Source: Burkholderiaceae bacterium
GTDB taxonomy: Bacteria; Pseudomonadota; Gammaproteobacteria; Burkholderiales; Burkholderiaceae_C
Direction: 5' to 3'
Assembly (NCBI GenBank): GCA_040400875.1
Contig: JBBAPK010000004.1
Location: 20,840 to 84,839, forward strand
DNA length: 64,000 bases
Numbering within the stretch: the first letter of the stretch is position 1; each line of letters opens with the position of its first letter. The position numbers were made by a program, and so were the translations under genes. Positions 8,087 to 64,000 of the stretch are shown one piece after another. Below the pieces are notes generated by a model. That model was given only the letters and a program-made list of their open reading frames with translations, did no database searches and had not been told where the DNA came from.

Positions 8087-8120
8087 GAAAGGATTATCCG
8101 AATCGGCACAATCGTCTCCG

Positions 8121-35100: not shown

Positions 35101-36120
35101 GTGTCGTCCGTAATTTCTGATCATCGTGCTGAGGAGTTTTCTTTGGAGCGTCGGGAACCGATGCGGCGACCGCCCTCAATGAAGGAGTCTCCGGTGTGGA
35201 TTGACAAGGTTTTCTCGGGTCTTGCGCACAGCGCGGCGATCCTGACATTGTTGCTTTTGTTTGCAATCATCGGGTCTTTGGTGATCGGTGCATGGCCTGC
35301 GATTGCGGAGTATGGGCTCTCGTTTCTTTGGAATACCGAATGGGATCCCGTTCAAAACAAGTTTGGTGGCTTGGTGATGATTTACGGCACGGTGATGACC
35401 TCAATCATCGCGCTGCTGATTGCTGTACCGGTAAGTTTTGGAATCGCTCTTTTTCTCACTGAATTGGCGCCGGGTTGGCTAAGGCGACCTTTGGGCATAG
35501 CGATCGAACTGCTTGCGGCAGTCCCATCGATTGTTTATGGTATGTGGGGGCTGCTTGTTTTCAGTCCAGTACTGGTTAAGTACGTACAACTTCCGCTTCA
35601 GGGTCTTTTGGCAGATGTGCCTTATCTGAGGACTCTTGTTTCAGGTTCGCCCGTGGGTATTGGAATACTGTCTGCAGGCATTATTCTGGCCATCATGATC
35701 ACGCCCTTCATCGCCTCGGTGATGAGGGATGTATTCGAGGTGACGCCTCCCATGCTGAAGGAGTCGGCATACGCATTGGGATCGACCACTTGGGAGGTGG
35801 TGTCCAAGGTCGTGCTTCCGTTTACCAAGACCGGCGTCGTTGGCGGGATCATGTTGGGGCTGGGTCGGGCCATTGGAGAGACGATGGCGGTGACTTTCGT
35901 TATTGGCAACTTCAACCAACTGAACAGTCTGTCCTTGTTTGAGGCTGCCAACAGCATCACCTCTGCACTGGCCAACGAATTTGCCGAGGCTGATCCTGGG
36001 TTGCATCAAGCATCGCTCATGTACTTGGGCCTCGTACTGTTTTTGATCACCTTCACCGTGCTTGCGATGTCCAAGTTCATGCTGAATCGACTCCGGAAGA
36101 ATGAAGGGAGCAAATCATGA
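35101..36120 (+). CDS. pstC: phosphate ABC transporter permease PstC
   Basis: GTG at 35101 preceded by AGGGGGA. The protein is polytopic with the EAA-type loop ([20 protein letters not shown]) and ends with an ATGA overlap into pstA. An alternative start is the ATG at 35161. Confidence 0.9.
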
Positions 36121-36992
36121 GCCTGAGCGCCGCTGCTGAATTGCAGATGTCCCGAGTCGCCATGCACAAGCGCAGGAAGTTGACGAACGCCGTCGCCTTG
36201 ATGGCATGTGTTTGTGCGATGGCATTTGGCTTGTTTTGGTTGGCATGGATCCTGTTCGAAACCATTCATCTGGGTTTGGGTGGCTTGAACCTCGCTGTTT
36301 TTACAGAGATGACGCCGCCGCCGATGGCTGAAACCGGCGGGTTGGTCAATGCGATCGCAGGTTCATTGGTCATGGTGACGTTGGCCACGCTCCTGGGTAC
36401 CCCGATTGGGGTGCTTGCCGGGATCTATCTGGCCGAATATGGTCAAAAGACTTGGCTCGGTGAACTCACCAGATTCATCAATGACATCTTGTTGTCTGCG
36501 CCGTCGATCGTCGTGGGGCTGTTCATTTACGCTGCGGTCGTGGCACCCACGAAACATTTCTCGGCCTACGCGGGAATTCTGGCGTTGTCTTTGATTGTGA
36601 TTCCTGTCGTAATCCGAACGACAGAAAACATGTTGGCCTTGATCCCGGGAGCGCTGCGAGAAGCCGCCTATGCTCTGGGCACGCCAAAATGGAAGGTGAT
36701 ATTGAGTATCACTTTGAAATCTGCGCGTGCCGGGGTCATCACCGGAATTCTCTTGGCCGTTGCAAGAATTTCAGGTGAAACGGCCCCCTTGCTATTCACA
36801 GCGTTGTCAAATCAGTTCTGGTCGTCGAGTATTTCGGAGCCCACGGCAAGTCTGCCGGTGACTATTTTCAAGTTTGCATTGAGCCCATACGAGAACTGGC
36901 AAAAGCTGGCGTGGGCTGGAGTTTTTATAATTACCTTTGGCGTGCTGATGCTGAACATTGCAGCGCGCTTCTTGTTCGGAAATAGAAAATAA
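36117..36992 (+). CDS. pstA: phosphate ABC transporter permease PstA
   Basis: 291 aa with 6 TM helices. The motif [20 protein letters not shown] and the C-terminal region are typical of PstA. Confidence 0.93.
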
Positions 36993-37010
36993 ATATTAAA
37001 GTAACCGATT

Positions 37011-37796
37011 ATGGAAAATAGTTCCAATATCCCAGAAGATGAAAAGATAAAAATTTCGGTTAAAAGCCTGAATTTTTATTATGGAAAATTTCATGCTCTC
37101 AAGGATATCTCGTTAGAGATTCCCGAAAAAAAGGTCACTGCATTCATCGGTCCTTCTGGGTGTGGCAAGTCAACCTTGCTTCGGACATTCAACCGCATAT
37201 TCGAGCTTTATCCGGAGCAGCGTGCCGAGGGCGAAATACTTATTGATGGCGAGGATGTTATTCGTTCGAAGATGGATATCTCGTTGATTCGCGCGAAGGT
37301 TGGAATGGTTTTTCAGAAGCCGACTCCATTCCCAATGTCGATTTATGAAAATATTGCTTTCGGCGTCCGACTTTTTGAAAAATTGACGCGTGTGGAGATG
37401 GACGAGCGCGTTGAATGGGCGCTCAAAAAAGGTGCTCTGTGGTCTGAAGTCAAAGATAAACTCAACCAAAGTGGCTCTGGCCTGTCGGGAGGGCAGCAGC
37501 AAAGGCTTTGCATCGCACGAGCAGTCGCGATCAAACCCGAGATCCTTTTGCTCGACGAACCTTGCTCTGCGCTTGATCCGATTTCCACTGGGAAAATTGA
37601 AGAATTGATCCATGAGTTGAAGTCAGACTACACGGTTCTTATCGTGACTCACAATATGCAGCAGGCGGCACGTTGTTCTGATTACACCGCATATATGTAT
37701 TTAGGTGATTTGATGGAGGTGGGCGCCACTTCCGATATCTTCATGAAGCCGAATCGAAAAGAAACCGAGGATTATATTACCGGTCGATTCGGTTAA
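37011..37796 (+). CDS. pstB: phosphate ABC transporter ATP-binding protein PstB
   Basis: [16 protein letters not shown], Walker [10 protein letters not shown], signature [14 protein letters not shown], Walker B LLLDEP, and the C-terminal [10 protein letters not shown]. It is very close to E. coli PstB throughout. Confidence 0.97.
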
Positions 37797-37827
37797 TCCA
37801 CAGTCATTTATATTTGATGGGCGAGCC

Positions 37828-38535
37828 GTGACGGAAAAGCATTTATCAGCTCAGTTTGACGCCGAGCTCAGCGGCATATCGACACGCGTTCTGGAGATGG
37901 GTGGGTTGGTGGAGTCACAGGTTTCTCAGGCCATCTACGCGCTCACCAATTTCAGTGAGGCCACTGCAGCCCAGGTGCTGACTCGCGAAGAGACAGTCAA
38001 CGCCGCCGAAGTCGAGATTGATCGTGATCTGTCAAGGATCCTTGCAAGGCGTCAGCCCACGGCTCGCGATTTGCGTCTGTTGATCGCCATTAGCAAAAGC
38101 ATTGCCAATCTGGAGCGTGTCGGGGACGAAGCCGCACGCATCGCCCGAACGGTGCAGCGCTTGATCAGCGCGGGCATGTCGAGCCGCCTTCGCTTGCCTG
38201 TCGAAGACTTGAAGTTCGAGTCTGATCTGGCCATCGCGCTCTTGAGAAAAGCGCTTGATGCTTTCGCTCGACTTGACGTGGACAAGGCGCTTGAAGTCTT
38301 GAAGCAAGACGATCAAATCGATCAGGAATTTGAGGGGCTGATGCGCAAGCTCATCACCTTCATGATGGAAGATCCCCGCACGATTTCGTCGAGCATCGAT
38401 CTCGTGTTTGTCGCGAAGGCAATTGAACGGGTCGGAGATCACGCCAAGAACCTGGCCGAGCAGATCATCTACATCGTCAAGGGCACGGATGTACGGCACA
38501 GCTCGGTGGAAGCTGTGGAAACACTGATGCGATGA
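37828..38535 (+). CDS. phoU: phosphate signalling complex protein PhoU
   Basis: 235 aa with a duplicated PhoU repeat carrying ERVGDEA / ERVGDHAKN metal-site motifs. Confidence 0.95.
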   Translation: MTEKHLSAQFDAELSGISTRVLEMGGLVESQVSQAIYALTNFSEATAAQVLTREETVNAAEVEIDRDLSRILARRQPTARDLRLLIAISKSIANLERVGDEAARIARTVQRLISAGMSSRLRLPVEDLKFESDLAIALLRKALDAFARLDVDKALEVLKQDDQIDQEFEGLMRKLITFMMEDPRTISSSIDLVFVAKAIERVGDHAKNLAEQIIYIVKGTDVRHSSVEAVETLMR

Positions 38536-38557
38536 GAAACACCATGAGGAGACAAGG

Positions 38558-39259
38558 ATGAGCCGCGTTTTGGTGGTTGAAGACGAGTCGGCGATCGCCG
38601 AGTTGATATCCATCAACTTGCGACATGCCGGTTATGACGTGACGATTGCTGGCACTGCCGATCAGGCACAGGTTGAGGTGGATGGCGTTTTGCCCGACCT
38701 GGTAGTTCTGGATTGGATGCTGCCCGGGCAGTCTGGGTTGGTGCTGGCCAAACGCTGGCGTGGCCAGTCGCGTACCCGTGAACTGCCCATCATCATGCTG
38801 ACGGCCCGAGCAGAAGAAGGCGACATGATTTCTGGCCTCGACGCTGGCGCTGACGACTATCTCACGAAGCCTTTTTCGACCAATGAGCTGCTGGCTCGCA
38901 TTCGGGCCGTTCTCAGGCGCAAGGCGCCTGAGGCCCTCGACACCATGGTGGACGTGGGTGGTTTGCAACTGGATCCGGCAACCCGTCGTGTGTCCAAGAA
39001 TGACCTTGAAGTGCGCATCGGGCCGACCGAATTCAGGTTGCTGCACTTTTTCATGACGCATCCCGAGCGCGTTCACAGTCGTGCGCAACTGTTGGACAGG
39101 GTGTGGGGCGACCATGTGTTCATCGAGGAGCGCACAGTGGACGTTCACGTCAAGCGCCTGCGAGAGGCGCTTGATCCGGTGGGCTGCTCACGGATGATCG
39201 AAACCGTTCGTGGTGCCGGCTATCGCCTCACTCAACAGGTGCAGGTGGCTGCGAGCTGA
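38558..39259 (+). CDS. phoB: phosphate regulon response regulator PhoB
   Basis: Receiver domain (VLVVEDE...LVVLDWMLPG...LTA...DDYLTKPF) and an OmpR/PhoB winged helix (TVDVHVKRLREAL...IETVRGAGYRL). Confidence 0.95.
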   Translation: MSRVLVVEDESAIAELISINLRHAGYDVTIAGTADQAQVEVDGVLPDLVVLDWMLPGQSGLVLAKRWRGQSRTRELPIIMLTARAEEGDMISGLDAGADDYLTKPFSTNELLARIRAVLRRKAPEALDTMVDVGGLQLDPATRRVSKNDLEVRIGPTEFRLLHFFMTHPERVHSRAQLLDRVWGDHVFIEERTVDVHVKRLREALDPVGCSRMIETVRGAGYRLTQQVQVAAS

Positions 39260-39282
39260 TCTCGGAGCGATCAAGCTCATTG

Positions 39283-40683
39283 ATGGACTGGTTGTTCCCA
39301 CGCCTGCTGGCAGCGCTGCTGTCTGTGCTACTGGCTGCCTCGTTTGGTGGCTTGATCGGTCAGTGGTGGCATGCGCCTGCGATAGGCGTGGTGGTTGGAT
39401 CTCTCGCCGGCGCGTTGGCCTACACCTCGGTGGATGTTTTGCGTGCGCAGCGCTTCATCAGATGGCTGCAGCAACAGAACCCGGAGCCCGCTCCACGAGA
39501 AGTGGGTTTTTGGGGCGAGGTGGGCCAACGGGTAGAGCGCTCTTTGAGGACACTCGAAAATCGGGTGGATTTCGAACAGACCCGGCTGGACCAATTTCTC
39601 TCAGCGATCGAGGCCTCACCTAACGGCGTGATGCTGCTGGATTCGAATGACCAGATCGAGTGGTGCAATTCCGTCGCAGCGGATCAGTTCGGGCTAGATC
39701 CCCATCGTGACCGGATGCAGCCGGTCACCAATCTTGTTCGGGAGCCGGCATTTGTGGCCTACATGCAGGCCGGGGTTTTCGATGAGCCGGTGGTCTTCCC
39801 AGGCCCCGGATTGCGCGGGACGGTTTCGGTGTCAGTTCGCCCCTATGGCGACGGCATGAGACTGGTCTTGTCGCAAGACATCACCGAGCGTGAACGAAAC
39901 GACAGCATGCGTCGAAGTTTCGTGGCCAACGTCTCACATGAAATTCGCACCCCGCTGACGGTGCTGTCCGGGTTCATTGAAACCATGTCAAGCCTGCAGT
40001 TGACCGAGGTCGAAAGGCGCCGAGTCAACGAATTGATGGCCCAACAAACCCGTCGAATGCAGCTGCTGGTCGGCGACCTTCTGACCCTCGCTCAACTCGA
40101 AGGCAGCCCGAGGCCACCCGCCGATCGATGGGTGGCAGTGCAGCAGGTGTTGGTTCAGGTTCGCGTGGCAGCCGAAGCCCTGTCGGCGGGGCGGCACACC
40201 TTGGTTTGCGAGAGCACGGGCACGGGCGATGGCGCTAGCGATCTGATCGCGGGTTCTGAGTCCGAACTGCACAGCGCCATTGCGAATCTTGTGACGAATG
40301 CCATCCGATACACCCCGGCTGGCGGCTCGGTGAGGGTGGTGTGGTCCATACGCCCCGACGGAACCGGAGAGCTGGACGTTCGCGACACGGGTATCGGTAT
40401 CGCTGCCGAGCATGTGCAGCGTCTGACGGAGCGTTTTTACCGTGTCGATGGCAGTCGTTCGCGTGACACTGGAGGCACCGGGCTTGGCTTGTCCATCGTC
40501 AAGCACGTTGTGCAAAGGCACGGCGGTGAGCTTGAAATTCGCAGTGATCCGGGCAGCGGCTCGAGTTTCAGATTGCTTTTCCCGGCTGCGCGAGTTCGTG
40601 CCGCAACCCACGGGATTCAGGTGGGAGAAGTGGACCGTTCCGCTATCGATGTGTCGCAAGAGCCCAGCGTTCACACGCGTTGA
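39283..40683 (+). CDS. phoR: phosphate regulon sensor histidine kinase PhoR
   Basis: ATG at 39283. It has two N-terminal TM segments, a PAS domain, the H-box FVANVSHEIRTPLT, and N, G1 (RDTGIGI) and G2 (GGTGLGLSIV) boxes. Confidence 0.92.
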   Translation: MDWLFPRLLAALLSVLLAASFGGLIGQWWHAPAIGVVVGSLAGALAYTSVDVLRAQRFIRWLQQQNPEPAPREVGFWGEVGQRVERSLRTLENRVDFEQTRLDQFLSAIEASPNGVMLLDSNDQIEWCNSVAADQFGLDPHRDRMQPVTNLVREPAFVAYMQAGVFDEPVVFPGPGLRGTVSVSVRPYGDGMRLVLSQDITERERNDSMRRSFVANVSHEIRTPLTVLSGFIETMSSLQLTEVERRRVNELMAQQTRRMQLLVGDLLTLAQLEGSPRPPADRWVAVQQVLVQVRVAAEALSAGRHTLVCESTGTGDGASDLIAGSESELHSAIANLVTNAIRYTPAGGSVRVVWSIRPDGTGELDVRDTGIGIAAEHVQRLTERFYRVDGSRSRDTGGTGLGLSIVKHVVQRHGGELEIRSDPGSGSSFRLLFPAARVRAATHGIQVGEVDRSAIDVSQEPSVHTR

Positions 40684-40720: not shown

Positions 40721-42403
40721 TCAACGCTTTGGCTTGGCTGCAGTCGATTCGCGGCGGTAGATCACCGTCCAGTCCGTGCGGTCGGTCGGCAATGACACGC
40801 GTGCGACTCGGACCCACCCTTCGGGCGCGACTCGTTTTTCGCGGCGCGGTTCGATCTGAATCATGTACTTGCAGATGCTGGCCGATGCGCCCATCGCGCC
40901 ATCTATTTGAAACGGGCCGAAGTACTCCAAAGAGGCTTGCAAGCTTCGGGGTATCTTTGGTGTTGCTATGCATTCACTCAGCGGCACATGCTTTGCAATC
41001 CGATTGACCAAGGGGCGGAAGCTTCTTGCATAGTCGACCAAGGGCAGCATCAGTGTCATCAGCAACAGCCAGCACAAAGCCACGCCGCTTGCCGGAAGGA
41101 CGAGGCTTTTCCAAAGTGCATGCTGGTTGCGCCCGGTACGCCAGCGCACCAGCCACAGCCAGGCGAGGCTGCCCGCAACCGCCAAAGCCAGCGAGCTTGC
41201 CGAGAAAACTGACGCAAAGCCGGGCGCAAGCTTGATCACATTTCGCGCGGTGGGCTCTGGAATGCCCGTTTGCAGCGCGGCGTAAATCACCCAGATCACG
41301 ACGGCGCACACGCTGAAGAAAAATACCGAAAACCAGTCGATCGCTGCAGCAGTGCTGCGCTTGAATGTCGGTAACGCAAAGGCGGCCAGTAGCGCCCAGG
41401 CCGGAAGAGACAGCATCAGCACCCGATCGACCCCACCGCACATCAGACTCGCCACGGACGTGACCGCAGCGCAACCCAGAGGCACTGCAATGTGGCGGTG
41501 CAGTATTTGGCGGCGCCACTGCCACAGGGTCCAAATCACCATAGGCCATGCCGGCCATAGAAACCAAGCCCATTGCCGAGCAACAGCCAGAATCTGTTCG
41601 GGCTTGCGCATGCCGCTCAATTGCCAAGTCCACAGTTCCAAGGCCGAACTGACGGTCATTGCCAACGCCATGGCCATCAATACCCAGGGGAAGAACTTGC
41701 GCACCTTGCTGTATGTGGATTTCGCGCAGATCACGGCACCCGTGAGACCGAGCGCAACGGCGATGCTTGGTGCGCCACTGGCGGCCAGCGCGGGCAAGGC
41801 GATCATCACCGCCACTTTGGCGCGCCATCCCTGCTGAATCGGGCTGGCCGCCAGTGCGTAGGTGAACAAGGAAATACAAGCGAGTTGAGCCAGTTCTGGA
41901 GTTGTCTCATGCCCCAGTTGGAGCAGCCCCAGGCTGGCAATCAATGCCAGCAAGGCACCGTCCGCGATGGCTCGAGCGTAGTCAGCAGGAACGGCCTCGC
42001 CACCGAAGGCAAACGGCACGGGCTGGGCCGCTTCACTGCGAGCAAGGTGATATGAGGCCAGCCAGGTCAGCGCCAGAACGGCTGCCAAAAGCGCAGCGAA
42101 CGGAAGCCTCGCTGCCAAGGCGGGATCAAGCCAGGGGTCCAGCAGCCGAATGAAACCGGCCCCAAGCCAGTGGGGCAACGGCGCTGTGGTGGCCGTCGCA
42201 CCCCCGATCGTGGGACTCCACCAAGAGGCCCGGCCCTCGACCATGCCAAACATGAGACCGAATGCCGTGACGTCGGCATTGCGCCAGGGGTCGCGGCCAA
42301 AAACTCCAGGCAGCACGTAGGCCGTGCAAAGCAGAACCAAGGCCCACCGAGGCAGTCGCTGCACGGCGCGCTGGGAAACAAGAGCAGGATTGGGCAGATT
42401 CAA
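40721..42403 (-). CDS. large polytopic inner-membrane protein, possibly GT-C/ArnT-PMT-like glycosyltransferase
   Basis: 560 aa with at least 12 hydrophobic segments. The N-terminal loop motif VFGRDPWRNADV resembles the acidic loop of GT-C (family 39-like) enzymes, and there is a soluble C-terminal ~90 aa. The function call is weak. Confidence 0.6.
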   Translation of the reverse strand: MNLPNPALVSQRAVQRLPRWALVLLCTAYVLPGVFGRDPWRNADVTAFGLMFGMVEGRASWWSPTIGGATATTAPLPHWLGAGFIRLLDPWLDPALAARLPFAALLAAVLALTWLASYHLARSEAAQPVPFAFGGEAVPADYARAIADGALLALIASLGLLQLGHETTPELAQLACISLFTYALAASPIQQGWRAKVAVMIALPALAASGAPSIAVALGLTGAVICAKSTYSKVRKFFPWVLMAMALAMTVSSALELWTWQLSGMRKPEQILAVARQWAWFLWPAWPMVIWTLWQWRRQILHRHIAVPLGCAAVTSVASLMCGGVDRVLMLSLPAWALLAAFALPTFKRSTAAAIDWFSVFFFSVCAVVIWVIYAALQTGIPEPTARNVIKLAPGFASVFSASSLALAVAGSLAWLWLVRWRTGRNQHALWKSLVLPASGVALCWLLLMTLMLPLVDYARSFRPLVNRIAKHVPLSECIATPKIPRSLQASLEYFGPFQIDGAMGASASICKYMIQIEPRREKRVAPEGWVRVARVSLPTDRTDWTVIYRRESTAAKPKR

Positions 42404-44709: not shown

Positions 44710-44970
44710 GGTGCATCCTCGTTACGCGCCGTACCGCAAGATCAACGTCGGGCTGAAAAGATTCTGACACATCAAACTGCTCCGGGGTCGGTGCCTTTCG
44801 GTCGTCGGGACAGAGCTTGGCAGCCAAGGCGATGAACGTTTTCCTGAGGTTGCGCCTGCGATTGGCGTGACTTGGATGCGCAAGGACCGAGCCACAGCAC
44901 GGGCTTTTCTTTGTTTGAGCCGCAAAGCGCCCTGATTTCGAGGCTTTGGCTGCGTGGAAATTCGGTTGCA

Positions 44971-46920
44971 ATGCTCCAGCATCGCCAGAACTTCACCATG
45001 ACGGCATCCGCATCTACCGCTGCCAGTCGACCGGCCCAGCCCAGTCCCCATTTCGGACGGTTCGAGCTGTTGCGCCTGCTTGGTAAGAGCCAAGGCAGCA
45101 TGGTGTGGCTGGTCAACGACCCGCAGACCCAGCAGCAACTGGTGCTCACCTTGCCAAGGGTGCAGCCCGGCGACCCCTGCGTTCTCGAGGACTGGATGGC
45201 CCGTGCAAGACACGCCGCCCGTTTGGCTCATCCGCATCTCGCGCACACCGTCGAGGTGTCGGTTCAGGAGCAGTGGCCCTATGCGGCGGCTGCGCGCTCA
45301 AACGGCGTCTTGCTGAGCGAGCGTTTGCGCGAACACCCCAACCCTGCCCCACTCGAGGCTGTGGGCTGGGTGTGCCAGATGCTGGAGGGGCTGGCGTTTG
45401 CGCATGACTCGGGCTCTGCTCACCATGACTTGCAACTTCACAGCCTGCAAATAAGCGATGGCGGCAGGCTCCAGGTCATGTCGCTTGGCACCTGCAGCGC
45501 GGATGACGCGCCACCGGCCTTGACGAACAAGGTCTTCGCGCGCGGTACGGAACGTGATTCGCTGCTTGGAGTCGACGCGCTGCGCGCTCATCGCGAGGCT
45601 GCCGGGCGCGACGTGGTGGCTTGCGGCGTTGTGCTGCATCGATTGTTGACAGGCGCTGCCGCGCTGGACGAGCCCGACGTCATGAAGGTGGTGAGGCGAC
45701 TGCCACCATGGGGCAATGACCTGATCAGGCTGCCCTGGAACACGGCCCACCCCATTACCGAGGCGCTGCGTGCGATTGCCAATCGCAGCACCTCAAGTCA
45801 GCCTTCGCAGCACTACATAAACGCGCGCAGTTTCCTGCGGGCCTTGCAGGGCTGGATGGAGTCCGAGGCGCTGGGCAGTGACGGGCCTCTCGAATTGATG
45901 CTCGGGCGTTTGCGCAGTGTGGGTGTCCTGCCCGCCGGGGCCGGAATAAGTGCTCGCATCGAACGTCTTGCCGCGATGGACGGTCAGCACACCGAGGAGA
46001 TCTCTCACCAGATCCTGCAGGACATGGCGCTGAGCTTCGAGTTATTGCGTGAGGTGAATTCATCGCAGGTTCAAGGCGCTCAGGCACGCACACCCTCGCC
46101 AGTACTCACCATTCGTCGTTCCATCGCCTTGCTGGGACTCAATGGCGTGCGTCGCGCGGCCAACTCTTTGCGGCCGTGGCCGGGACCGTTGTCCGTGGCC
46201 CACGCCAAAGCCCTGCGCGTGCTGATGGACCGCGTGCGTCAGGCTGGCTACACCGCCCAGTCGCTGCGCCCGGCGGGCTACGACGGCGAAGTGGTCTATC
46301 TCGTGACGCTGCTTCAGAACCTCGGCCGCCTGCTGGCCCAGTACCACTTTCCTGACGAGTACGAGCAGATACAAAGGCTGATGCAAAGCCCGAGCGCGGA
46401 CCTGGCAGCTGACCCAGACGCTCCACCGCGCGCAGGCTGGAGTGAGACCGAGGCCTCTTTTGCCGTGCTTGGAATCGACATCGAGGCGCTGGGCGCGGCT
46501 GTGGCGCGGCACTGGGGTCTGGGTGAAGAAGTGCTGCACATGGTTCGCTGCCTTCCCAAGGACAGACCTGTGCGCGCAGCCGAAACTGACGGCGACGTCT
46601 TGCGCATGACGGCCAGTGCTGCCAACGAGGCGGTCGATGCCTTGATGCTGTCGACAGCCGAAGAAGCCCAAGCAGGTCGTCCCGTGCCTGCGGCCGCGAC
46701 GGCTGTGACCAACAAGATCGCATCGACACGCGCCTCAGCCCTGCGCAACTTGCCGGCTCAGCGTTACGCGAAAACGCTCGGGCTGACACCGAGACGGGTC
46801 CAGGAGGCGTTGGCCGCCGCGCGTGAGGCGCTGCGCACGGGCGCTCCTCTTCAGACCTCTGATCCGAGCGGACTTTCCGACGCGATCGCAAAGCCTAGAC
46901 CAGCAGCGGTTTCCGGCTGA
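44971..46920 (+). CDS. protein kinase-like (predicted pseudokinase) domain fused to an HDOD domain
   Basis: The N-terminal Hanks-kinase-like fold has degenerate catalytic motifs: LVLTLP for VAIK, HHDLQLHSL for HRDLKPxN, MSLG for DFG. The central and C-terminal HDOD-like region is ISHQILQDMALSFELLREVNSS...IRRSIALLGLNGVRRAANSL. The start is ambiguous (44971 or 44998). Confidence 0.8.
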   Translation: MLQHRQNFTMTASASTAASRPAQPSPHFGRFELLRLLGKSQGSMVWLVNDPQTQQQLVLTLPRVQPGDPCVLEDWMARARHAARLAHPHLAHTVEVSVQEQWPYAAAARSNGVLLSERLREHPNPAPLEAVGWVCQMLEGLAFAHDSGSAHHDLQLHSLQISDGGRLQVMSLGTCSADDAPPALTNKVFARGTERDSLLGVDALRAHREAAGRDVVACGVVLHRLLTGAAALDEPDVMKVVRRLPPWGNDLIRLPWNTAHPITEALRAIANRSTSSQPSQHYINARSFLRALQGWMESEALGSDGPLELMLGRLRSVGVLPAGAGISARIERLAAMDGQHTEEISHQILQDMALSFELLREVNSSQVQGAQARTPSPVLTIRRSIALLGLNGVRRAANSLRPWPGPLSVAHAKALRVLMDRVRQAGYTAQSLRPAGYDGEVVYLVTLLQNLGRLLAQYHFPDEYEQIQRLMQSPSADLAADPDAPPRAGWSETEASFAVLGIDIEALGAAVARHWGLGEEVLHMVRCLPKDRPVRAAETDGDVLRMTASAANEAVDALMLSTAEEAQAGRPVPAAATAVTNKIASTRASALRNLPAQRYAKTLGLTPRRVQEALAAAREALRTGAPLQTSDPSGLSDAIAKPRPAAVSG

Positions 46921-56824: not shown

Positions 56825-56994
56825 TCACGACTTTCCTTCGTCGCTTCGAAAGGCCGGCACTGCCGGCCTTTTTTCATGGCTTTTGTGAACCGTCGGGGTG
56901 ATCGATCGGGCTGGCTTGATTTCCACCGGTCATGCCCAGCATTTGCACAGCTTTACCCACAGGCGATCGGCCGCCCCGAACTTATGATGGGCCG

Positions 56995-58428
56995 ATGTCT
57001 GCCCTGTTTGCTTCTGCCCAGAGTCCATCGCCCATGTCCCGAGGCGACGATGAAGTCGCCCGGCTGCGTGTTCCTCCACATTCGATCGAAGCCGAGCAAA
57101 GCGTGCTCGGCGGGCTCTTGCTCGACAACAGCGCCTGGGACCGTGCGGCCGATCTGCTGACCGAGAGCGACTTCTACCGCTTCGAGCACCGCGCCATCTA
57201 CAGCGCGATCGGCTCGCTGGTCAACGCCACCAAGCCGGCCGATGTGATCACGGTGTTCGAGCAGTTGCAAAGCCTGGGAAAGGCCGACGACTGCGGCGGT
57301 CTCGTCTATCTCAACTCGCTGGCGCAAAGCGTGCCGAGTGCGGCCAATCTGCGCCGCTATGCCGAGATCGTTCGCGAGCGATCGGTGCTGCGCAAGCTGG
57401 TTTCGGCCAGTGACGACATCGCCACCAGCGCCTTCAATCCGCAGGGCCGCGCGGTGTCCGAAATCCTCGACGATGCCGAGAGCAAGATCTTCAAGATCGG
57501 CGAAGAAGGCTCGCGCTCGAGGCAGGGTTTCCAGACCATGGACTCGCTGGTCGTGCAACTGCTCGATCGGGTGACCGAGCTGCACGAGAACGGCGCCGAG
57601 GAAGTCACCGGCGTTCGCACTGGCTACTTTGATCTCGACCGCATGACGGCCGGTTTTCAGCCCGGCGACCTGATCGTGCTTGCTGCTCGTCCGTCGATGG
57701 GCAAGACCGCACTGGCGCTCAACATCGCCGAACACGTGGCGGTCCAGGAAGGCCTGCCGGTGGTGGTGTTCTCGATGGAAATGGGCGCGGCGCAACTGGC
57801 CTTGCGGCTGGTCGGATCGCTCGGGCGCATCGACCAGCAGCACCTGCGCACCGGTGCGCTCAAAGACGACGAGTGGGGCCGACTCACCGAAGCCATCGAA
57901 AAGCTCGGTCGGGTCAATATGTACATCGACGAGAGCCCGGCCCTGACGCCTGGTGAGGTGAGGGCGCGCGCGCGCCGTCAGGCCCGTCAGTGCGGTCAGC
58001 TCGGGTTGATCGTGGTTGATTACCTGCAGCTCATGAGCGGCAGCGGCGGGGCGAACGAAGAGAACCGCGCCACCGTGATCGGCGAGATCTCGCGCGGCCT
58101 GAAGTCGCTGGCCAAGGAGCTCAAGTGCCCGGTGATCGCGCTGTCGCAGCTCAATCGCAGCGTCGAATCCCGCACCGACAAGCGGCCGATGATGAGCGAC
58201 CTGCGCGAGTCGGGTGCGATCGAGCAGGACGCCGACGTCATCATGTTCATCTACCGCGACGAGTACTACACGAAAGAAGCCTGCAAGGAACCCGGCGTGG
58301 CCGAAATCATCATCGGCAAGCAGCGTAACGGGCCGACGGGCACGGTCAAACTCACCTTCTTGAAGCCGCTGACCAAGTTCGACAACCTGGCGCCGGGCAG
58401 CGCCGGGTCTGATTTCGAGCCGTACTAG
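56995..58428 (+). CDS. dnaB: replicative DNA helicase DnaB
   Basis: PPHSIEAEQSVLGGLLLDN, Walker A ARPSMGKTA, Walker B VVDYLQLM, and QLNRSVESRTDKRPMMSDLRESGAIEQDAD. I chose the start at the ATG at 56995. Confidence 0.95.
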   Translation: MSALFASAQSPSPMSRGDDEVARLRVPPHSIEAEQSVLGGLLLDNSAWDRAADLLTESDFYRFEHRAIYSAIGSLVNATKPADVITVFEQLQSLGKADDCGGLVYLNSLAQSVPSAANLRRYAEIVRERSVLRKLVSASDDIATSAFNPQGRAVSEILDDAESKIFKIGEEGSRSRQGFQTMDSLVVQLLDRVTELHENGAEEVTGVRTGYFDLDRMTAGFQPGDLIVLAARPSMGKTALALNIAEHVAVQEGLPVVVFSMEMGAAQLALRLVGSLGRIDQQHLRTGALKDDEWGRLTEAIEKLGRVNMYIDESPALTPGEVRARARRQARQCGQLGLIVVDYLQLMSGSGGANEENRATVIGEISRGLKSLAKELKCPVIALSQLNRSVESRTDKRPMMSDLRESGAIEQDADVIMFIYRDEYYTKEACKEPGVAEIIIGKQRNGPTGTVKLTFLKPLTKFDNLAPGSAGSDFEPY

Positions 58429-60050
58429 GCGCGCAGTTTCAGGCCGCCAGCCGAGCGCTGGCTTTGTCCTAGGCCGAACTGTGAGCCCTGCGCGCAGTAA
58501 AGCGCCTTCAGGTCACTGACCCGGGTGCTCAGGTTCTCGCAGGCGCCGATGTTGGCCGCATGCCGGCTCAACACGGCGCCGGCGAGCTCGATCAGCTTCG
58601 CGTTGCCCGTTTGAGAGCCGCCCAACAGCAGCGACTCCACCGCGACCATGGGCTGGCCCGACACGCTGTGGGTCATGGCTTGTTCGGCCATGCTGCTGAT
58701 GCTGTGGTGGCCTTCGTGAATCAGCGCGCTGTAGGCCTCGTCGCCGTCGGAGGCCAGACAAAGCATTTCGCAGCTGACCTTGGAAACGCAGTAACGCTGC
58801 GACAAGTCCTTGACCCATTGCTCAGGGTGCGGCAAATCGGTGCCGGCCCGGCGAACACGCACCAGCACGGCCAGCAGGTTGGTGGCAGCTTCGTAGTCGA
58901 AATCAGCGCTGCGTATTTCGGCACCCAGTTCGACGACCGCTCGCGCGCACTCATCGGGCTGGCGCTCAATGAGCGCCAGCAGTGCTTCGCAGTTCCTCAC
59001 AAAGCGCTGCAGCCGCAGCGACTCGGGTTTTTTCTGCGCCAGCATGGCCAGATTGGCCATGGCCCACTTGAATTCCTTGCTGTCTTTCTTGTCGAAATAG
59101 ACCAGGCACAGCAAGACCAGGCTTTGCGCATCGAACATCTTTGACTTCAGCCCCAGACGCACTGTGCGATCGAGGTCTTCCATGGCATCGTCCTTGTTGC
59201 CGCTGAAGAACGACAACATGCCGTGCTTTTGCAGGCGCGGAATGCTCTGGGGCGTGATCTGCAGCGAGGTCCGGTAAGAGCCCAGCGCCAGGTCCATGTG
59301 GCCTTGCTCCAGATGAATCTGGGCCATCACGTCATGGGCATCGGCGTATCCGGGGTCTTCGGCCAACAACTCGTCGAGCAGGCGGGTGGCAGTGGGCACG
59401 CTGCCCGAGGCGAGCTCTGCACGGGCCAGCCCCAACGCGGCCCAGGCCGCGGGTTTGGCTTCGTTGGCCGACTGATACAACTTGTTGGCCGCCTTGACGT
59501 CGCCCACCCGCAGGAACAACTCGGCGCCGATGCGCGCGGCATAAAGCCAGAAATCTTCCCTGGACCGATAGCGTGCCAAGCACATCTTGGCGGCAGCCGC
59601 GAAATCGCCGGCCTGTATGGCTGCAAAGACGTGACTCAAGGTGCGTTTGCGGTGGCGGGCTGTGACGATGCGCTCTTCCAGCGCAAAGGCCGTGTGCGGC
59701 TTGACCAGATAGCCGTCCAGTGCCGATTCAGCAGCCTCGGCCACCTTGAGGTAGGAGCACTCGCCGGTCACCATGATGAACACGGTCGAAAACGGCAGCA
59801 GCTGGGCCTGCCTGAGGTCGTCGAGCAGTTCTTGCCCGTTGATCGAGTTGTTGTCGAAGTGGTAGTCGCACACCACGACGTCGAACACGCGCGATTCAAG
59901 CTCCTGTCTGGCGTCGACCACACGGCTGGTTTGCGACACATCGGTCATGCCCATGCCGCGCAGCACATTCATCAAAGCGCTGCGAGACACCGGGTTGGCG
60001 TCGATGACAAGGGCGGTGCAGTCGCTGATTCCAGCGTCGGCAGCCCTCAT
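58425..60050 (-). CDS. orphan CheY-like receiver + TPR-like repeats + conserved Cys/His C-terminal domain (paralog 1)
   Basis: The ATG at 60050 gives 541 aa, collinear with paralog 2. Receiver residues are D17, D62 (VVCDYHF), T95 (MVTGE) and K117 (YLVKP). The middle region is helical and TPR-like (LLDELLAEDPGYADAHDVMAQIHLEQGHMDLALGSY). The C-terminal domain has CVSKVSCEMLC and HEGHH. Confidence 0.85.
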   Translation of the reverse strand: MRAADAGISDCTALVIDANPVSRSALMNVLRGMGMTDVSQTSRVVDARQELESRVFDVVVCDYHFDNNSINGQELLDDLRQAQLLPFSTVFIMVTGECSYLKVAEAAESALDGYLVKPHTAFALEERIVTARHRKRTLSHVFAAIQAGDFAAAAKMCLARYRSREDFWLYAARIGAELFLRVGDVKAANKLYQSANEAKPAAWAALGLARAELASGSVPTATRLLDELLAEDPGYADAHDVMAQIHLEQGHMDLALGSYRTSLQITPQSIPRLQKHGMLSFFSGNKDDAMEDLDRTVRLGLKSKMFDAQSLVLLCLVYFDKKDSKEFKWAMANLAMLAQKKPESLRLQRFVRNCEALLALIERQPDECARAVVELGAEIRSADFDYEAATNLLAVLVRVRRAGTDLPHPEQWVKDLSQRYCVSKVSCEMLCLASDGDEAYSALIHEGHHSISSMAEQAMTHSVSGQPMVAVESLLLGGSQTGNAKLIELAGAVLSRHAANIGACENLSTRVSDLKALYCAQGSQFGLGQSQRSAGGLKLRA

Positions 60051-60232
60051 GACGCGGCCCTCGACGTGCGCATCACGCGCGTGCTTCGAAAGCAAACTTC
60101 AGGGCAGGCAGCAACATCAAACCGAAACGCAAGGGGCATGGTCAGTCATCCAGCGACTCATTCAGACAGGTCTTTATCGGAAGGCCTGCCCAAAGGCTTG
60201 AGGGCGGCTGCCGCTAAGATGTTTTTGCAGGC

Positions 60233-61861
60233 TCAGGTGCGAAGATTCAGCCCGCCAGCCGATCGCAGGGGGTTTTGCCCCAGCCTGACCTGGGCACCCT
60301 TGGCGCAGTAGCGGATCTTCAGGTCATTGACCTTTTTGTTCAGGGCATCGAACACGCTGATCTGCGCCGAGTGACGGCTGAGCACAGCGCCGGCGAGCTC
60401 GATCAGCTTGGCGTTGCAGGTTTCCGCGCCGCGCAGCAGCAAGGCTTCCACCGCGACGCTGGGTTCTCCTGAAACGCTGTGCGCCATCGCCTCTTCGGCC
60501 ATGTTGCTGATGCTGTGGTGGCCCTCGTGGATCAAGGCGCTGTAGATCGGATCATTGCCAGCGGCGATGCACAGCATTTCGCACGAGGCCTTGGACACGC
60601 AAAAGCGGCGCGACAAATCGTTGACCCAGCTGTCGGCCTCGGGCACCGCGACGTTGGCCTTGCGCATTCGCGCCAGCAAGGCCAGCAGGTTGGACGCCGC
60701 CTCGTAGTCGAAGTCCATGTGCCCGATGTCGGCGCCGATCTTGCGCGCCAGTGAAAGGCACCCGGTCAGGTTGCCGGTGGACAAGCGGTTCAGAGCACCA
60801 GCGACTTGCGCCATACGCTTCAAGAAAGCATCGCCTGGCCGCCGCTCTGCGGCGACCTCAAGGTGCGTGAGCGCGCGCTTCAAGTCGACCAGATTGCCCT
60901 CGTCGAAATACAGCAGCGTCATCACGACCAGCGTCTGGAAGTCGAACATCTTCGACTTCAGGCCGATGCGCACCGTGCGGTCGAGCGTTTGCGCGGCTTC
61001 CTTGTTTTCGCCCAGCAAAAAAGCCAGCATGCCCTGCTTTTGCAGCCGCGTGACGCTGTGCGGAGTGACACGCACCGAATCGCGCGAGGTCTCGAGTGCG
61101 GCGGCCAGGTCGCCTTGCTCAAGCTGCACCTGGCTCATCACGTCGTAGGCGTCTGCGTACTCGGGAAAGTCTTCGATCAGCCCCTCAAGGATGCGCATGG
61201 CCTTGGGCCCCTGGCCGCTTTCAAACTCGGCTCGCGCCATTCCCAGCTTGGCCCACAGCAGACCTTCGGACTGGTAGGCGGCGGTGTAGACCGCCTTGGC
61301 CGATGTGTGGTCTTTCAAGCGCATGAGCAGCTCGGCGCCAACATGACCGGCGTACAGCCAGAAATCCTCGCGCTGCGAAAAACGGCTCAGGCACATCTTG
61401 GCCGCGCCTTCGAAGTCGCCTTGGCGTATGGCTTCGAAGATGTAGCCCAGCACGCGCTTGCGGCGGCGCGCCAGCAACACACGCTCTTCGAGCGCAGCCG
61501 CGTTGTGCGGCTTGAGCAGATAACTGTCGAGCGCCGATTCGGCGGCTTCAACCACCTTCAGGTACGAGCGCTCGCCGGTGACCATGACGAACACGGTGGA
61601 GTAGGGCAGCAGTTGCGACTGACGCAGGTCATCGAGCAGTTCTTGACCGGACATCGGCGACTTGTCGAAGTGGTAATCGCACAGGACGATGTCGAAGGTC
61701 GTGATCTCGAGTTCCTGCCTGGCATCGGCCACGCGGCTGGTCTGCGAGATGTGCCCGACGCCAATATCGCGCAGCATGTTCATCAGCGCGCTGCGCGAAG
61801 TCGAATTGCCATCGATGACCAGCGCCTTGCATTCGCGAACTTCGGGATCGATCAGGCGCAT
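60233..61861 (-). CDS. orphan CheY-like receiver + TPR-like repeats + conserved Cys/His C-terminal domain (paralog 2)
   Basis: 542 aa, with GGAGGGG upstream of the ATG at 61861. It has the same architecture and motif positions as paralog 1 (D17, D62, T95, K117, CVSKASCEMLC, HEGHH). Confidence 0.85.
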   Translation of the reverse strand: MRLIDPEVRECKALVIDGNSTSRSALMNMLRDIGVGHISQTSRVADARQELEITTFDIVLCDYHFDKSPMSGQELLDDLRQSQLLPYSTVFVMVTGERSYLKVVEAAESALDSYLLKPHNAAALEERVLLARRRKRVLGYIFEAIRQGDFEGAAKMCLSRFSQREDFWLYAGHVGAELLMRLKDHTSAKAVYTAAYQSEGLLWAKLGMARAEFESGQGPKAMRILEGLIEDFPEYADAYDVMSQVQLEQGDLAAALETSRDSVRVTPHSVTRLQKQGMLAFLLGENKEAAQTLDRTVRIGLKSKMFDFQTLVVMTLLYFDEGNLVDLKRALTHLEVAAERRPGDAFLKRMAQVAGALNRLSTGNLTGCLSLARKIGADIGHMDFDYEAASNLLALLARMRKANVAVPEADSWVNDLSRRFCVSKASCEMLCIAAGNDPIYSALIHEGHHSISNMAEEAMAHSVSGEPSVAVEALLLRGAETCNAKLIELAGAVLSRHSAQISVFDALNKKVNDLKIRYCAKGAQVRLGQNPLRSAGGLNLRT

Positions 61862-61994
61862 CGACCCCTCCGAGCCGACGGCAAGAACTCATCCAACGAA
61901 GAGAAAAAACAAGCGCGCATGTCGACCCGTGGCTCACCGATACCCCATCGATATCGGATCGGCATGCGGGGTCTTGAGCCCCGATGGCCTGCGC

Positions 61995-63164
61995 TTACTT
62001 GAACAGGTTCTTGACCCGGTCAGACCACGTCTGCGAATTGGGCGAATGCTTGTCGCCGTTTTTCTGGAATGAATCTTCCAGTTCACGCAACAGCTTGCGC
62101 TGGTGCTCGGTCAGCTTGACCGGTGTTTCCACGGTGACATGGCAGTAGAGGTCGCCGGGATAACTCGAGCGCAGGCCCTTGATGCCCTTGCCGCGCAGCC
62201 TGAAGGTCTTGCCGTGCTGCGTGCCCTCGGGCAGTTCGATCTCGGCCTTGCCGTTGAGCGTGGGCACATGGATTTGCCCGCCCAGCGACGCGGTGACCAT
62301 GCTCACCGGCGCGGTGCAGTGCAGGTCGTCGCCATCGCGCTCGAAGATCTCATGGGGCTTGACGCGGATCTCGATGTACAGATCGCCCGACGGGCCGCCG
62401 TTGGTGCCGGGCTCGCCGTTGCCGGCCGAGCGGATGCGCATGCCTTCGTTGATGCCGGCCGGGATCTTGACCTCGAGTGTCTTGTTCTTCTTGATGCGGC
62501 CCTGGCCATGACAGGTCACGCACGGCTCGGGGATCACCTTGCCCATGCCGCGGCAGGCCGGGCAGGTTTGCTGGATGCTGAAAAAACCCTGGCGCATCGT
62601 GACCGCGCCGGAGCCGTTGCAACTGCCGCACACCTTCGGGCTGGTGCCGGGCTTGGCACCGGTGCCGTGGCAGGTGTCGCAGGTTTCGAAGGCGGGAATG
62701 CGTATCTGTGTTTCCTTGCCGGCGGCGCAGTCCTCGAGCGTGATCTCCATCGTGTACGACAGGTCATTGCCACGGAAAACCTGCTGCCCACCGCCACCGC
62801 CACCCCCACCACCGCCGCGACGCGGGCCGCCCGAGCCGCCAAAGATGTCGCCGAAGATGTCGCCGAAAGCTTCTGCAAAGCCGCCCATGCCATCCGGGCC
62901 GCCACCGGGGCGAAAGCCGCCACCCATGTTGGGGTCGACGCCGGCGTGGCCGTACTGGTCGTAGGCCGCGCGCTTTTGCGCGTCGGAGAGCATCTCGTAA
63001 GCCTCCTTGGCCTCCTTGAAGCGCTCTTCGGCTTTCTTCGCATCGTCACCCTGATTGCGGTCAGGGTGGTGCTTCATCGCGAGCTTGCGATAAGCCTTCT
63101 TGATGTCTTCCTCGGTGGCGTTCTTGGCCACGCCCAGGGTTTCGTAGTAATCGCGCTTTGCCAT
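61995..63164 (-). CDS. dnaJ: molecular chaperone DnaJ
   Basis: The ATG at 63164 gives [13 protein letters not shown]-domain HPD, a Gly-rich linker and four CxxCxGxG zinc-finger repeats are present. Confidence 0.97.
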
Positions 63165-63297
63165 CGGTACATCCGTCACGCCGCAGCGTCTGGTTCAAAC
63201 AAGAACGCCGCGTCGGATCCCAGCTGCGCGCTGGAGCCTGCGAACGCGGCGCAGACACCGGGGTTCACCCCGGCGCCGCAGCTTCATCGTTGTCGCG

Positions 63298-64000
63298 TCA
63301 CTTCTTTTCTTTGACTTCGGTGAACTCGGCATCCACCACGTTGTCATCGGCCGGCTTGTCAGACGCTCCTGCCGATTGTGGAGCCGCCTCGCCAGCGGCT
63401 GCACCGGCTGCTGCGGCCGCTGCCTGCGATTCGGCGTAGACCTTTTCGCCGAGCTTTTGGCTGGCCGTCATCAGCGCTTCGGTCTTGGCTTCGATGTCGG
63501 CCTGGTCTTCGCTCTTGAGCGATTCTTCGGCGTCCTTCAAGGCGGCTTCGATCTTTTCCTTGTCGCCGGCATCGAGCTTGTCACCGTGCTCGGTCAGGCT
63601 CTTCTTCACGCTGTGCACCATCGCATCGGCCGAATTGCGCGCCTGGATCAAGCCGAGCTTTTTCTTGTCCTCAGCGGCGTTGAGTTCGGCGTCTTTGACC
63701 ATCTGCTGGATCTCGGCTTCGGTCAGACCCGAGTTGGCCTTGATGGTGATCTTGTTTTCCTTGCCGGTGCCCTTGTCCTTGGCGCCCACGTGCAAGATGC
63801 CGTTGGCGTCGATGTCGAAGCTCACCTCGATTTGCGGCGTGCCGCGTGGTGACGGTGGGATGCCTTCGAGGTTGAACTCGCCCAGGCTCTTGTTGCCCGA
63901 TGCCATCTCGCGCTCGCCTTGGTACACCTTGATCGTCACGGCCGGCTGGTTGTCGTCGGCGGTGCTGAAGGTCTGTGCGAACTTGGTCGGGATGGTCGTG
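63298..64000 (-). CDS. dnaK: molecular chaperone DnaK, C-terminal part (5' end beyond window)
   Basis: The frame is open to the window edge. The translation reads ...[33 protein letters not shown]...[17 protein letters not shown]...EFTEVKEKK. Confidence 0.97.

Follow-up and report, generated by a model that had tools for sequence, protein, structure and literature searches.

Two adjacent genes directly behind dnaJ in a stretch of 64,000 nucleotides from a Burkholderiaceae bacterium (contig JBBAPK010000004.1, positions 20,840 to 84,839; this whole stretch is referred to below as the window) encode the paralogous proteins geneA and geneB, each consisting of an N-terminal CheY-like receiver (REC) and a long solenoid resembling tetratricopeptide repeats (TPR). 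We favour, at a probability of roughly 0.55, the reading that these are cytoplasmic signalling scaffolds in which a pseudo-receiver controls a protein-binding solenoid, possibly with coupling to chaperones or to stress. The features on which this reading draws are as follows.

geneA: 60233..61861, minus strand; 542 aa, receiver plus TPR-like solenoid, copy 1 of the array (from the list of open reading frames, ORFs, and Pfam)
geneB: 58425..60050, minus strand; 541 aa, copy 2 of the array and paralog of geneA (start at the ATG matching the family N-terminus)
geneA receiver: 61472..61834, minus strand; residues ~10-130, with D17, G18, N19, C61-D62-Y63-H64-F65, T95, Y114 and K117
geneB receiver: 59661..60023, minus strand; with D17, A18, N19, CDYHF, T95 and K117
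geneA solenoid: 60308..61471, minus strand; residues 131-518, all-helical and TPR-like, ~21 helices (AlphaFold2, AF2, and Foldseek)
geneA C-terminal half: 60236..60964, minus strand; residues 300-542, family-specific, without a known family or fold match

A degenerate receiver joined to a helical solenoid

The two adjacent same-strand genes proposed in the initial annotation of this DNA were confirmed from the ORFs, and BLASTP returns exactly the 310 identities and single gap that had been counted by hand (310/541, or 57%, with 74% positives). A Shine-Dalgarno sequence, GGAGG, lies 8 nt ahead of the geneA ATG, and the geneB ORF is open further upstream, to a TTG at 60095. The two are real paralogs and are uncharacterised; a literature search covering REC-TPR proteins, response regulators with TPR and genes downstream of dnaJ brought up no work on the family.

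Pfam recognises both receivers as Response_reg (PF00072) at residues 14-128, with 48.0 bits for geneA and 47.9 for geneB against a cutoff of 30.2, and the AF2 model folds residues 12-120 into the five strand-helix units of a (beta-alpha)5 receiver, with beta1 at 12-16. The alignment to CheY (2chy, E 8.7e-15) is gapless over residues 9-66, the region of the acidic DD pair, with small gaps beyond, and equates D17 with D12, D62 with D57, T95 with T87, Y114 with Y106 and K117 with K109. The position of CheY D13, the second residue of the pair (DD2), is occupied by G18 in geneA and A18 in geneB, leaving the acidic pair incomplete. Four of the five active-site residues are thus kept (the first acidic residue DD1, D62, T95 and K117), and the earlier description of a complete receiver has to be given up. 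Position 18 is G, A, S, T or P in 90 of 92 family copies; these copies come from the 80 loci that were retained out of at least 565 matches in species-representative genomes, and the locus counts given below refer to the same 80.

In receivers DD2 contacts the metal (Mg2+) directly (PMC12632262). A 2025 review from the Bourret laboratory defines a pseudo-receiver as a domain recognised as PF00072 that is missing one or more of the residues DD, D, T and K (PMC12632262), and the window proteins count as pseudo-receivers by this definition because DD2 is absent, though the Asp is kept. The typical replacements are D to E, T to A and K to R, a Glu at the acceptor site can serve as a phosphomimetic, and pseudo-receivers are common, with the manner in which they are switched being an acknowledged gap (PMC12632262).

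The substitution spectrum of the family (D to E/A/S, T to A, K to R) is that reported for pseudo-receivers. Among 66 representatives, which are full-length members taken one per 50%-identity cluster, the commonest residue at position 62 is E (31), followed by D (22), A (7), S (4) and, once each, G and N, and there are further active-site changes of K117 to R in 15 and of T95 to A in 8. Asp replacements are also found in orthologs at the same position behind dnaJ. Glu62, which is present in 36 of the 92 locus copies, is distributed clade by clade (Rhizobacter, Leptothrix, Sphaerotilus, Ideonella, Hydrogenophaga and Polaromonas) and co-varies with a change of Y63 to Q or H. These replacements show a family that does not depend on an Asp acceptor. 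The window copies retain D62 and are not themselves aspartate-less receivers. The initial annotation had held that a dispensable Asp would count against its proposal of a signalling module, and the outcome is divided, in that E, A, S, G or N replaces the Asp in two-thirds of the representatives whereas D62, T95 and K117 are invariant in the clade of the window proteins.

The remainder of each protein is helical. Pfam TPR families exceed their cutoffs in geneB (TPR_19 at 46.2 bits, cutoff 25; TPR_16 at 33.2, cutoff 32.7; TPR_14 at 27.9, cutoff 23.5) and are also found in geneA (TPR_19 at 29.2 bits and TPR_14 at 28.4 bits, in a TPR region at ~180-300), and the AF2 model, built from 39 homologs (pLDDT 81.7), predicts uninterrupted helices over residues 121-518, from H121-146 through H504-518. 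Foldseek matches the full model to TPR superhelices (OGT TPR, consensus TPR and BBS4/8) with E ~1e-6 over 280-500 columns, in agreement with the TPR-like repeats that had been noticed at the outset.

An additional C-terminal domain of ~160 aa, bearing Cys and His residues and assignable to nothing known, had also been proposed, and only its lack of known relatives stands. Residues 300-542 modelled alone (pLDDT 85) give a best Foldseek match in the PDB of E 0.077, weakly TPR-like, and the weak top fold matches are the TPR-like proteins BamD, LapB and BepA; no Pfam family is matched consistently among 17 family members, and searches of NCBIfam and of PDB sequences give no significant match. A known output domain in this region is rejected, as Pfam, NCBIfam, PDB sequence and Foldseek searches were all without significant match, and the HMM, structure-prediction and fold-search checks recommended in the initial annotation place the region in no well-characterised family. 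Searched against 1.84 billion cluster representatives, its profile retrieves no more than 365 clusters, and the full-length matches measure ~514-585 aa and carry the region in the C-terminal half, mostly at ~300-542; the C-terminal half is restricted to this REC-TPR architecture. As modelled, the supposed C-terminal domain is a family-specific continuation of the helical-repeat solenoid and not a separate known output. A conserved Cys/His metal site was rejected because most of the residues concerned vary across the 92 copies: C421 is kept in 77 and H461 in 72, a moderate conservation, and C427 and C431 are Cys in 14 and 35, respectively. The two proteins are without a catalytic or DNA-binding fold, and none of the PADLOC anti-phage defence models matched either of them at E <= 0.01.

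Divergence, distribution and copy number

Identity between geneA and geneB is 71% in the receiver, 65% in residues 131-170, 48% in 171-300, 35% in 301-382 and 66% in 383-542, and the receiver and the C-terminal part are thus the most conserved and the middle the most diverged, much as first described. Synonymous divergence between the copies (dS) stays at about 1 along the whole length, so that the conservation of the ends reflects constraint, and gene conversion was rejected as its origin on the same values (~0.8-2 in all regions). The ratio of non-synonymous to synonymous divergence (dN/dS) against the orthologs in a close relative, L001, is 0.10 for geneA and 0.14 for geneB, and no region of either gene comes near a dN/dS of 1; by these ratios both copies are evidently under purifying selection and functional. 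The faster-evolving middle region has a dN/dS of 0.13-0.37 in every comparison (Nei-Gojobori), values that at this resolution leave positive selection on the middle repeats unsupported. Its divergence indicates relaxed constraint, with diversifying selection not demonstrated.

The family has more than 1800 database matches, whose names go no further than 'response regulator' or 'CheY-like'. Judged from the titles of the retained loci, the matches in species-representative genomes are all from Burkholderiales, mostly of Sphaerotilaceae-type genera (Piscinibacter, Rhizobacter, Aquabacterium, Leptothrix, Sphaerotilus and Ideonella) with a few Comamonadaceae, so that the family does not extend beyond a single freshwater/soil group of that order. 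Three metagenome-assembled genomes (MAGs), L001, L044 and L069, carry titles ('Bordetella parapertussis', 'Pseudomonadales bacterium' and 'Chitinophaga pinensis') that clash with their Sphaerotilaceae-type dnaKJ content, and are probably mis-binned or mislabelled records.

Most genomes have one family copy. The L001 locus contains three tandem copies compared to two in the window, with copy 1 being 95% identical to geneA, copy 2 being 93% identical to geneB, and the extra copy located at L001:5587-6981; a third copy was seen in L001, L002, L004 and L014. In a neighbour-joining tree geneA, geneB and the third copy form a clade-specific expansion, and independent duplications are present in Leptothrix (L038) and in Ideonella-type genomes (L054, L064 and L066). 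The tree and copy counts argue for lineage-specific tandem amplification from one copy to two or three, in which the single copy is the usual state and the pair is not ancestral, and copy number is polymorphic among close relatives. The comparative check of whether the pair always occurs as a duplicate was therefore answered in the negative, as the family is normally single-copy. The possibility that geneB is a recombinant of copies 2 and 3 is unsupported, since it is 85-100% identical to L001 copy 2 in every 40-aa segment.

The Hsp70 locus and the question of phosphorylation

The surroundings of the two genes are as follows.

dnaB: 56932..58428, plus strand; convergent with geneB, the stops overlapping by 4 bp (58425-58428)
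geneA-geneB spacer: 60051..60232, minus strand; 182 nt
dnaJ-geneA spacer: 61862..61994, minus strand; 133 nt
dnaJ: 61995..63179, minus strand; directly upstream of geneA and co-oriented, a conserved neighbour (from translation and synteny)
dnaK, 3' part: 63298..64000, minus strand; runs off the end of the window (from translation and synteny)

A family gene lies directly 3' of dnaK-dnaJ and co-oriented with them in 58 of the 80 loci, the Glu clades included, and the genes beyond it vary. Both the position after dnaJ and the shared orientation that had been remarked on in the window are therefore conserved, but the pair cannot be said to be inserted between dnaB and dnaKJ, because conservation extends to the dnaJ side alone; direct contact with dnaB is lineage-specific, and in other genera the distance from the family gene to dnaB, taken up by unrelated genes, is 0-6 kb. 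Pfam DnaJ domains are present in the orthologous locus L081, and the C-terminus of the window dnaK product reads ...[13 protein letters not shown]. A terminator-like hairpin of dnaB at 58446-58462 sits within the geneB coding sequence.

The gap between dnaJ and the family gene in the 58 loci has a median of 119 nt and is shorter than 100 nt in 25. In the window, consensus scans of the dnaJ-geneA spacer detected neither a sigma-70-like promoter nor an intrinsic-terminator-like site, and no convincing sigma-32 match was seen by eye, no sigma-32 motif scan having been made; a minus-strand scan of the geneA-geneB spacer found no terminator-like site. Judged from the gap lengths and the terminator-like hairpins across the 58 loci, co-transcription with dnaJ is likely in some genera and not in others.

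As was initially reported, neither a kinase nor an Hpt gene is adjacent, the neighbours being dnaJ and dnaB. The sole histidine kinase found in the window, in a scan of 20 of the largest ORFs, is PhoR (39280-40683), ~18 kb off, and it was rejected as the kinase for geneA and geneB because it belongs to a pst-phoU-phoBR block and is paired with PhoB. The co-oriented run of ORFs at 35101-40683 on the plus strand is an apparent phosphate-regulon (pst-pho) block in which PhoR and one permease were scanned; the latter is a BPD_transp_1 ABC-transporter permease at 35101-36120, and the presumed PhoB at 38558-39259 falls within the unscanned interval 36117-39259.

Other genera do have a kinase at this locus. 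Family members adjoin a kinase only in the Aquabacterium-type loci, namely L042, L046, L048, L050, L083 and L084. There dnaJ is known or likely to be followed by a trio of genes: first the canonical REC-TPR gene (product 546-548 aa), then a 206-aa histidine kinase gene 3-25 nt on, and then a family member 39-70 nt further on. The kinase consists of an H-box and HATPase_c without a sensor domain and has 474 database matches, and the family members next to it bear the Asp and lack DD2. In Leptothrix, A. soli and a 'Rubrivivax' MAG the canonical REC-TPR and the kinase alone follow dnaJ. The pairs are located as follows.

Canonical REC-TPR plus kinase: L048:7590-9861
Canonical REC-TPR plus kinase: L083:345-2624
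Canonical REC-TPR plus kinase: L085:5343-7621
Canonical REC-TPR plus kinase: L087:4347-6621
Canonical REC-TPR plus kinase: L088:4088-6373

The pair lies directly after dnaJ in L048, L087 and L088 and ~2.8 kb downstream in L085, across an inverted ABC-transporter operon; in L083 the sequence upstream of the pair is lacking. By its gene order and domains it is apparently an uncharacterised two-component pair situated at the Hsp70 locus, and the family found in the window looks like a derived sister of this bona fide pair at the same locus. The Aquabacterium soli locus also has a 401-aa gene between dnaK and dnaJ (L087:1752-2957) with no Pfam match.

On the reading that we favour, the solenoid would bind one or more partner proteins, and the receiver would set the state of the solenoid through intramolecular docking or dimerisation. 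The receiver state in the Glu orthologs would be fixed and phosphomimetic-like, and the Asp copies of the window would perhaps still be modulated, with a distal kinase of the sensor-less 206-aa type or a small phosphodonor as candidate modulators; an adjacent kinase would be neither present nor required. The missing kinase would then be explained because most members have lost phosphorylation residues, provided that the window copies are unphosphorylated too. The most speculative steps are that a shared switch and C-terminal module with different middle repeats may serve related but non-identical partners, and that expression plausibly coupled to the dnaKJ stress operon would give the proteins a role linked to proteostasis or stress.

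Several findings weigh against this reading. Of 119 close homologs in the window clade, 116-119 keep D62, T95, K117, Y114 and the CDYHF motif unchanged, as would be expected of a receiver that is still phosphorylated, and the presence of DD2-less receivers beside a kinase in L048 and L083 suggests that phosphotransfer may survive the loss of DD2. Receiver residues 61-120 have a pLDDT of only 51-66 in the AF2 model. A terminator-like hairpin follows dnaJ in 17 of the 58 loci, the Comamonadaceae and more divergent members are in contexts unrelated to dnaJ, and the dnaKJ link may perhaps be inherited synteny and not function. The literature search yields no experimental data for any member.

The unrelated contexts are heterogeneous and include neighbours encoding a GntR regulator, a dehydrogenase and a DEAD-box helicase, with no conserved partner gene among the divergent members. 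One divergent member of 581 aa (L089:5610-8746) begins 5 nt after a gene with DUF3391 and HD-GYP (HD_5/HD) domains, a single observation that hints at a link to cyclic di-GMP in that lineage. Another (L091:6001-13132) is on a contig with RepA_C and ParA/ParB genes, possibly a plasmid or secondary replicon.

The serious rival, which we consider clearly the less probable of the two, is that geneA and geneB are classical orphan response regulators in which D62 is phosphorylated by a kinase elsewhere in the genome, thereby switching the binding of TPR partners; the kinase might be homologous to the sensor-less 206-aa one, or might be of the hybrid type and act together with an Hpt protein. The invariance of D62, T95, K117 and Y114 in the window clade argues for this, as does the closeness of the receiver to CheY, its most similar sequence (E 1e-13 to 1e-15), and in the Aquabacterium-type loci it is Asp-bearing members that lie 39-70 nt behind the kinase, with no Glu-bearing copy having that kinase nearby. 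However, DD2 is absent in nearly all members, the neighbours of the kinase included, and the kinase is coupled more tightly, by its gap of 3-25 nt, to the canonical REC-TPR upstream. Orthologs at the same locus function with E, A or S at the acceptor site, and PhoR, the one kinase found in the window, is paired with PhoB. The earlier view of an orphan regulator awaiting a distal kinase is therefore weakened by the loss of DD2 and the replacement of Asp in two-thirds of the representatives, although D62 is kept in the window clade.

A functional tie to DnaK or DnaJ is attractive, and we regard it as rather unlikely. The solenoid would dock on DnaK (for example, on its conserved acidic C-terminal tail, much as eukaryotic TPR co-chaperones bind EEVD) or on DnaJ. 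The proteins would serve as co-chaperones or adaptors under regulation, or as a stress switch titrated by chaperones, and would be expressed as part of the heat-shock operon. The tie rests on synteny within one clade: the position after grpE-dnaK-dnaJ persists in the 58 loci through divergence to ~45% identity and with varying downstream genes, and the gap is <=61 nt in 14 loci, in none of which the scan picked up a terminator-like site. The paralogous canonical REC-TPR and kinase pair fills the same slot in other genera, the 133-nt gap in the window is without promoter or terminator in consensus scans, and DnaK ends ...[10 protein letters not shown]. Adjacency within a single family-level clade could nonetheless be historical, terminator-like hairpins stand behind dnaJ in 17 of the 58 loci, and the Comamonadaceae and divergent members are unlinked to dnaJ. 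We also know of no bacterial TPR co-chaperone that binds DnaK.

More improbable again is a signalling module built into the Hsp70 operon of Sphaerotilaceae-type Burkholderiales, in which chaperone availability, and not a sensor domain, would gate the kinase and scaffold. The ancestral order would have been dnaK, dnaJ, canonical REC-TPR, sensor-less histidine kinase and pseudo-receiver-TPR, with the TPR solenoids docking on DnaK or DnaJ. The window lineage would have lost the kinase and canonical partner from the locus and amplified the pseudo-receiver-TPR gene to two or three diverging copies, and in other lineages the Asp would have been fixed as a phosphomimetic Glu after loss of the kinase. 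If true, this would be a bacterial, receiver-controlled counterpart of the eukaryotic TPR co-chaperones, or a two-component switch operated by chaperone titration.

A role in assembling the envelope, pili or exopolysaccharide (EPS), like that of the TPR proteins PilF, PilW and PrsT, in the formation of flocs, EPS or type IV pili, to which partial NCBIfam similarity in the TPR region (PrsT 58.2 bits, PilW 32 bits) and some JGI annotations as 'Tfp pilus assembly protein PilF' would point, is effectively refuted by scores far below the cutoffs (312.2 for PrsT, TIGR02917; 154 for PilW, TIGR02521) over generic TPR repeats, by a receiver that fills the N-terminus (Pfam from residue 14), so that neither a signal peptide nor a lipobox could fit there, and by a context in which no locus examined has adjacent pilus, EPS or PEP-CTERM genes.

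The significance of the family lies in a natural series at one locus, from the canonical REC-TPR with its mini-kinase, through the DD2-less Asp members such as the window copies, to the Glu/Ala/Ser orthologs; the step from phosphorylation-dependent to phosphorylation-independent signalling is therefore testable by swaps of orthologs or residues. The fixed position after dnaK-dnaJ offers a concrete and cheap hypothesis, that of a TPR adaptor coupled to the bacterial Hsp70. If neither idea holds, geneA and geneB would be one more case of an uncharacterised orphan regulator with a protein-binding output.

Elsewhere in the window, 44872-46920 (plus strand) encodes a 682-aa protein with HDOD at 353-560 only, its N-terminal ~350 residues having no Pfam match at E <= 1e-5. 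A 560-aa ORF at 40721-42403 (minus strand) has no Pfam match, failed a gene filter based on third-position GC content (GC3) and may not be a real gene. The gene for EarP, the EF-P arginine rhamnosyltransferase, is at 6902-8143 (minus strand), and that for a three-domain multicopper oxidase is at 15337-17097 (plus strand).

Comparison with known systems

The canonical REC-TPR proteins that accompany the 206-aa kinase in Aquabacterium, Leptothrix and 'Rubrivivax' are like geneA and geneB in length, in the order of REC and TPR and in their slot after dnaJ, and are 27-33% identical to them over the REC and the first ~200 residues of the solenoid. They differ in having DD, D, T and K intact and in always being followed by the kinase, neither gene being present at the window locus, and their C-terminal half has no detectable similarity to that of the family (hhalign probability 0.1).

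CheY itself is the best sequence match of the receiver and is co-linear with it, with equivalents of D57, T87, Y106 and K109 present. The equivalent of D13 is absent in geneA and geneB, which add a solenoid of ~410 aa and have no che genes nearby, and the NCBIfam CheY equivalog NF007901 is not reached (49.5 and 50.1 bits against a cutoff of 189).

A further likeness is to the bacterial pseudo-receivers and aspartate-less receivers, for which Maule et al. 2015 is a further reference. The family shares with them the missing active-site residue and the replacements D to E, T to A and K to R (PMC12632262), but mixes Asp-retaining and Asp-less orthologs at one locus. The window copies, which keep D, T, K and the aromatic residue of Y-T coupling, are borderline pseudo-receivers and not clear aspartate-less receivers.

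A precedent for a pseudo-receiver that works through TPR is the FrzS-SgmX system of Myxococcus xanthus, in which a phosphorylation-independent CheY-like domain acts through a TPR domain by protein docking (PMC9811614). In that system the domains are on separate proteins and activate the polar type IV pilus, whereas geneA and geneB are fusions in an unrelated context, whose sequences have only the classes of domain in common with FrzS and SgmX.

The TPR co-chaperones of Hsp70/Hsp90, Hop/Sti1 and CHIP, share with geneA and geneB a TPR superhelix, predicted here, and a link to DnaK, here through the genes; no homology beyond generic TPR was found. Eukaryotic Hop and CHIP bind the EEVD motif at the C-terminus of the chaperone through a two-carboxylate clamp in a unit of three TPRs, and bacterial DnaK is without a terminal EEVD. 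We know of no receiver fusion among co-chaperones of the Hop/CHIP type. Pseudo-receivers and TPR scaffolds are thus the known kinds into which geneA and geneB fall, and what is particular to the family is its C-terminal half, the D/E/A/S series of its orthologs, and its recurrent amplification behind dnaKJ.

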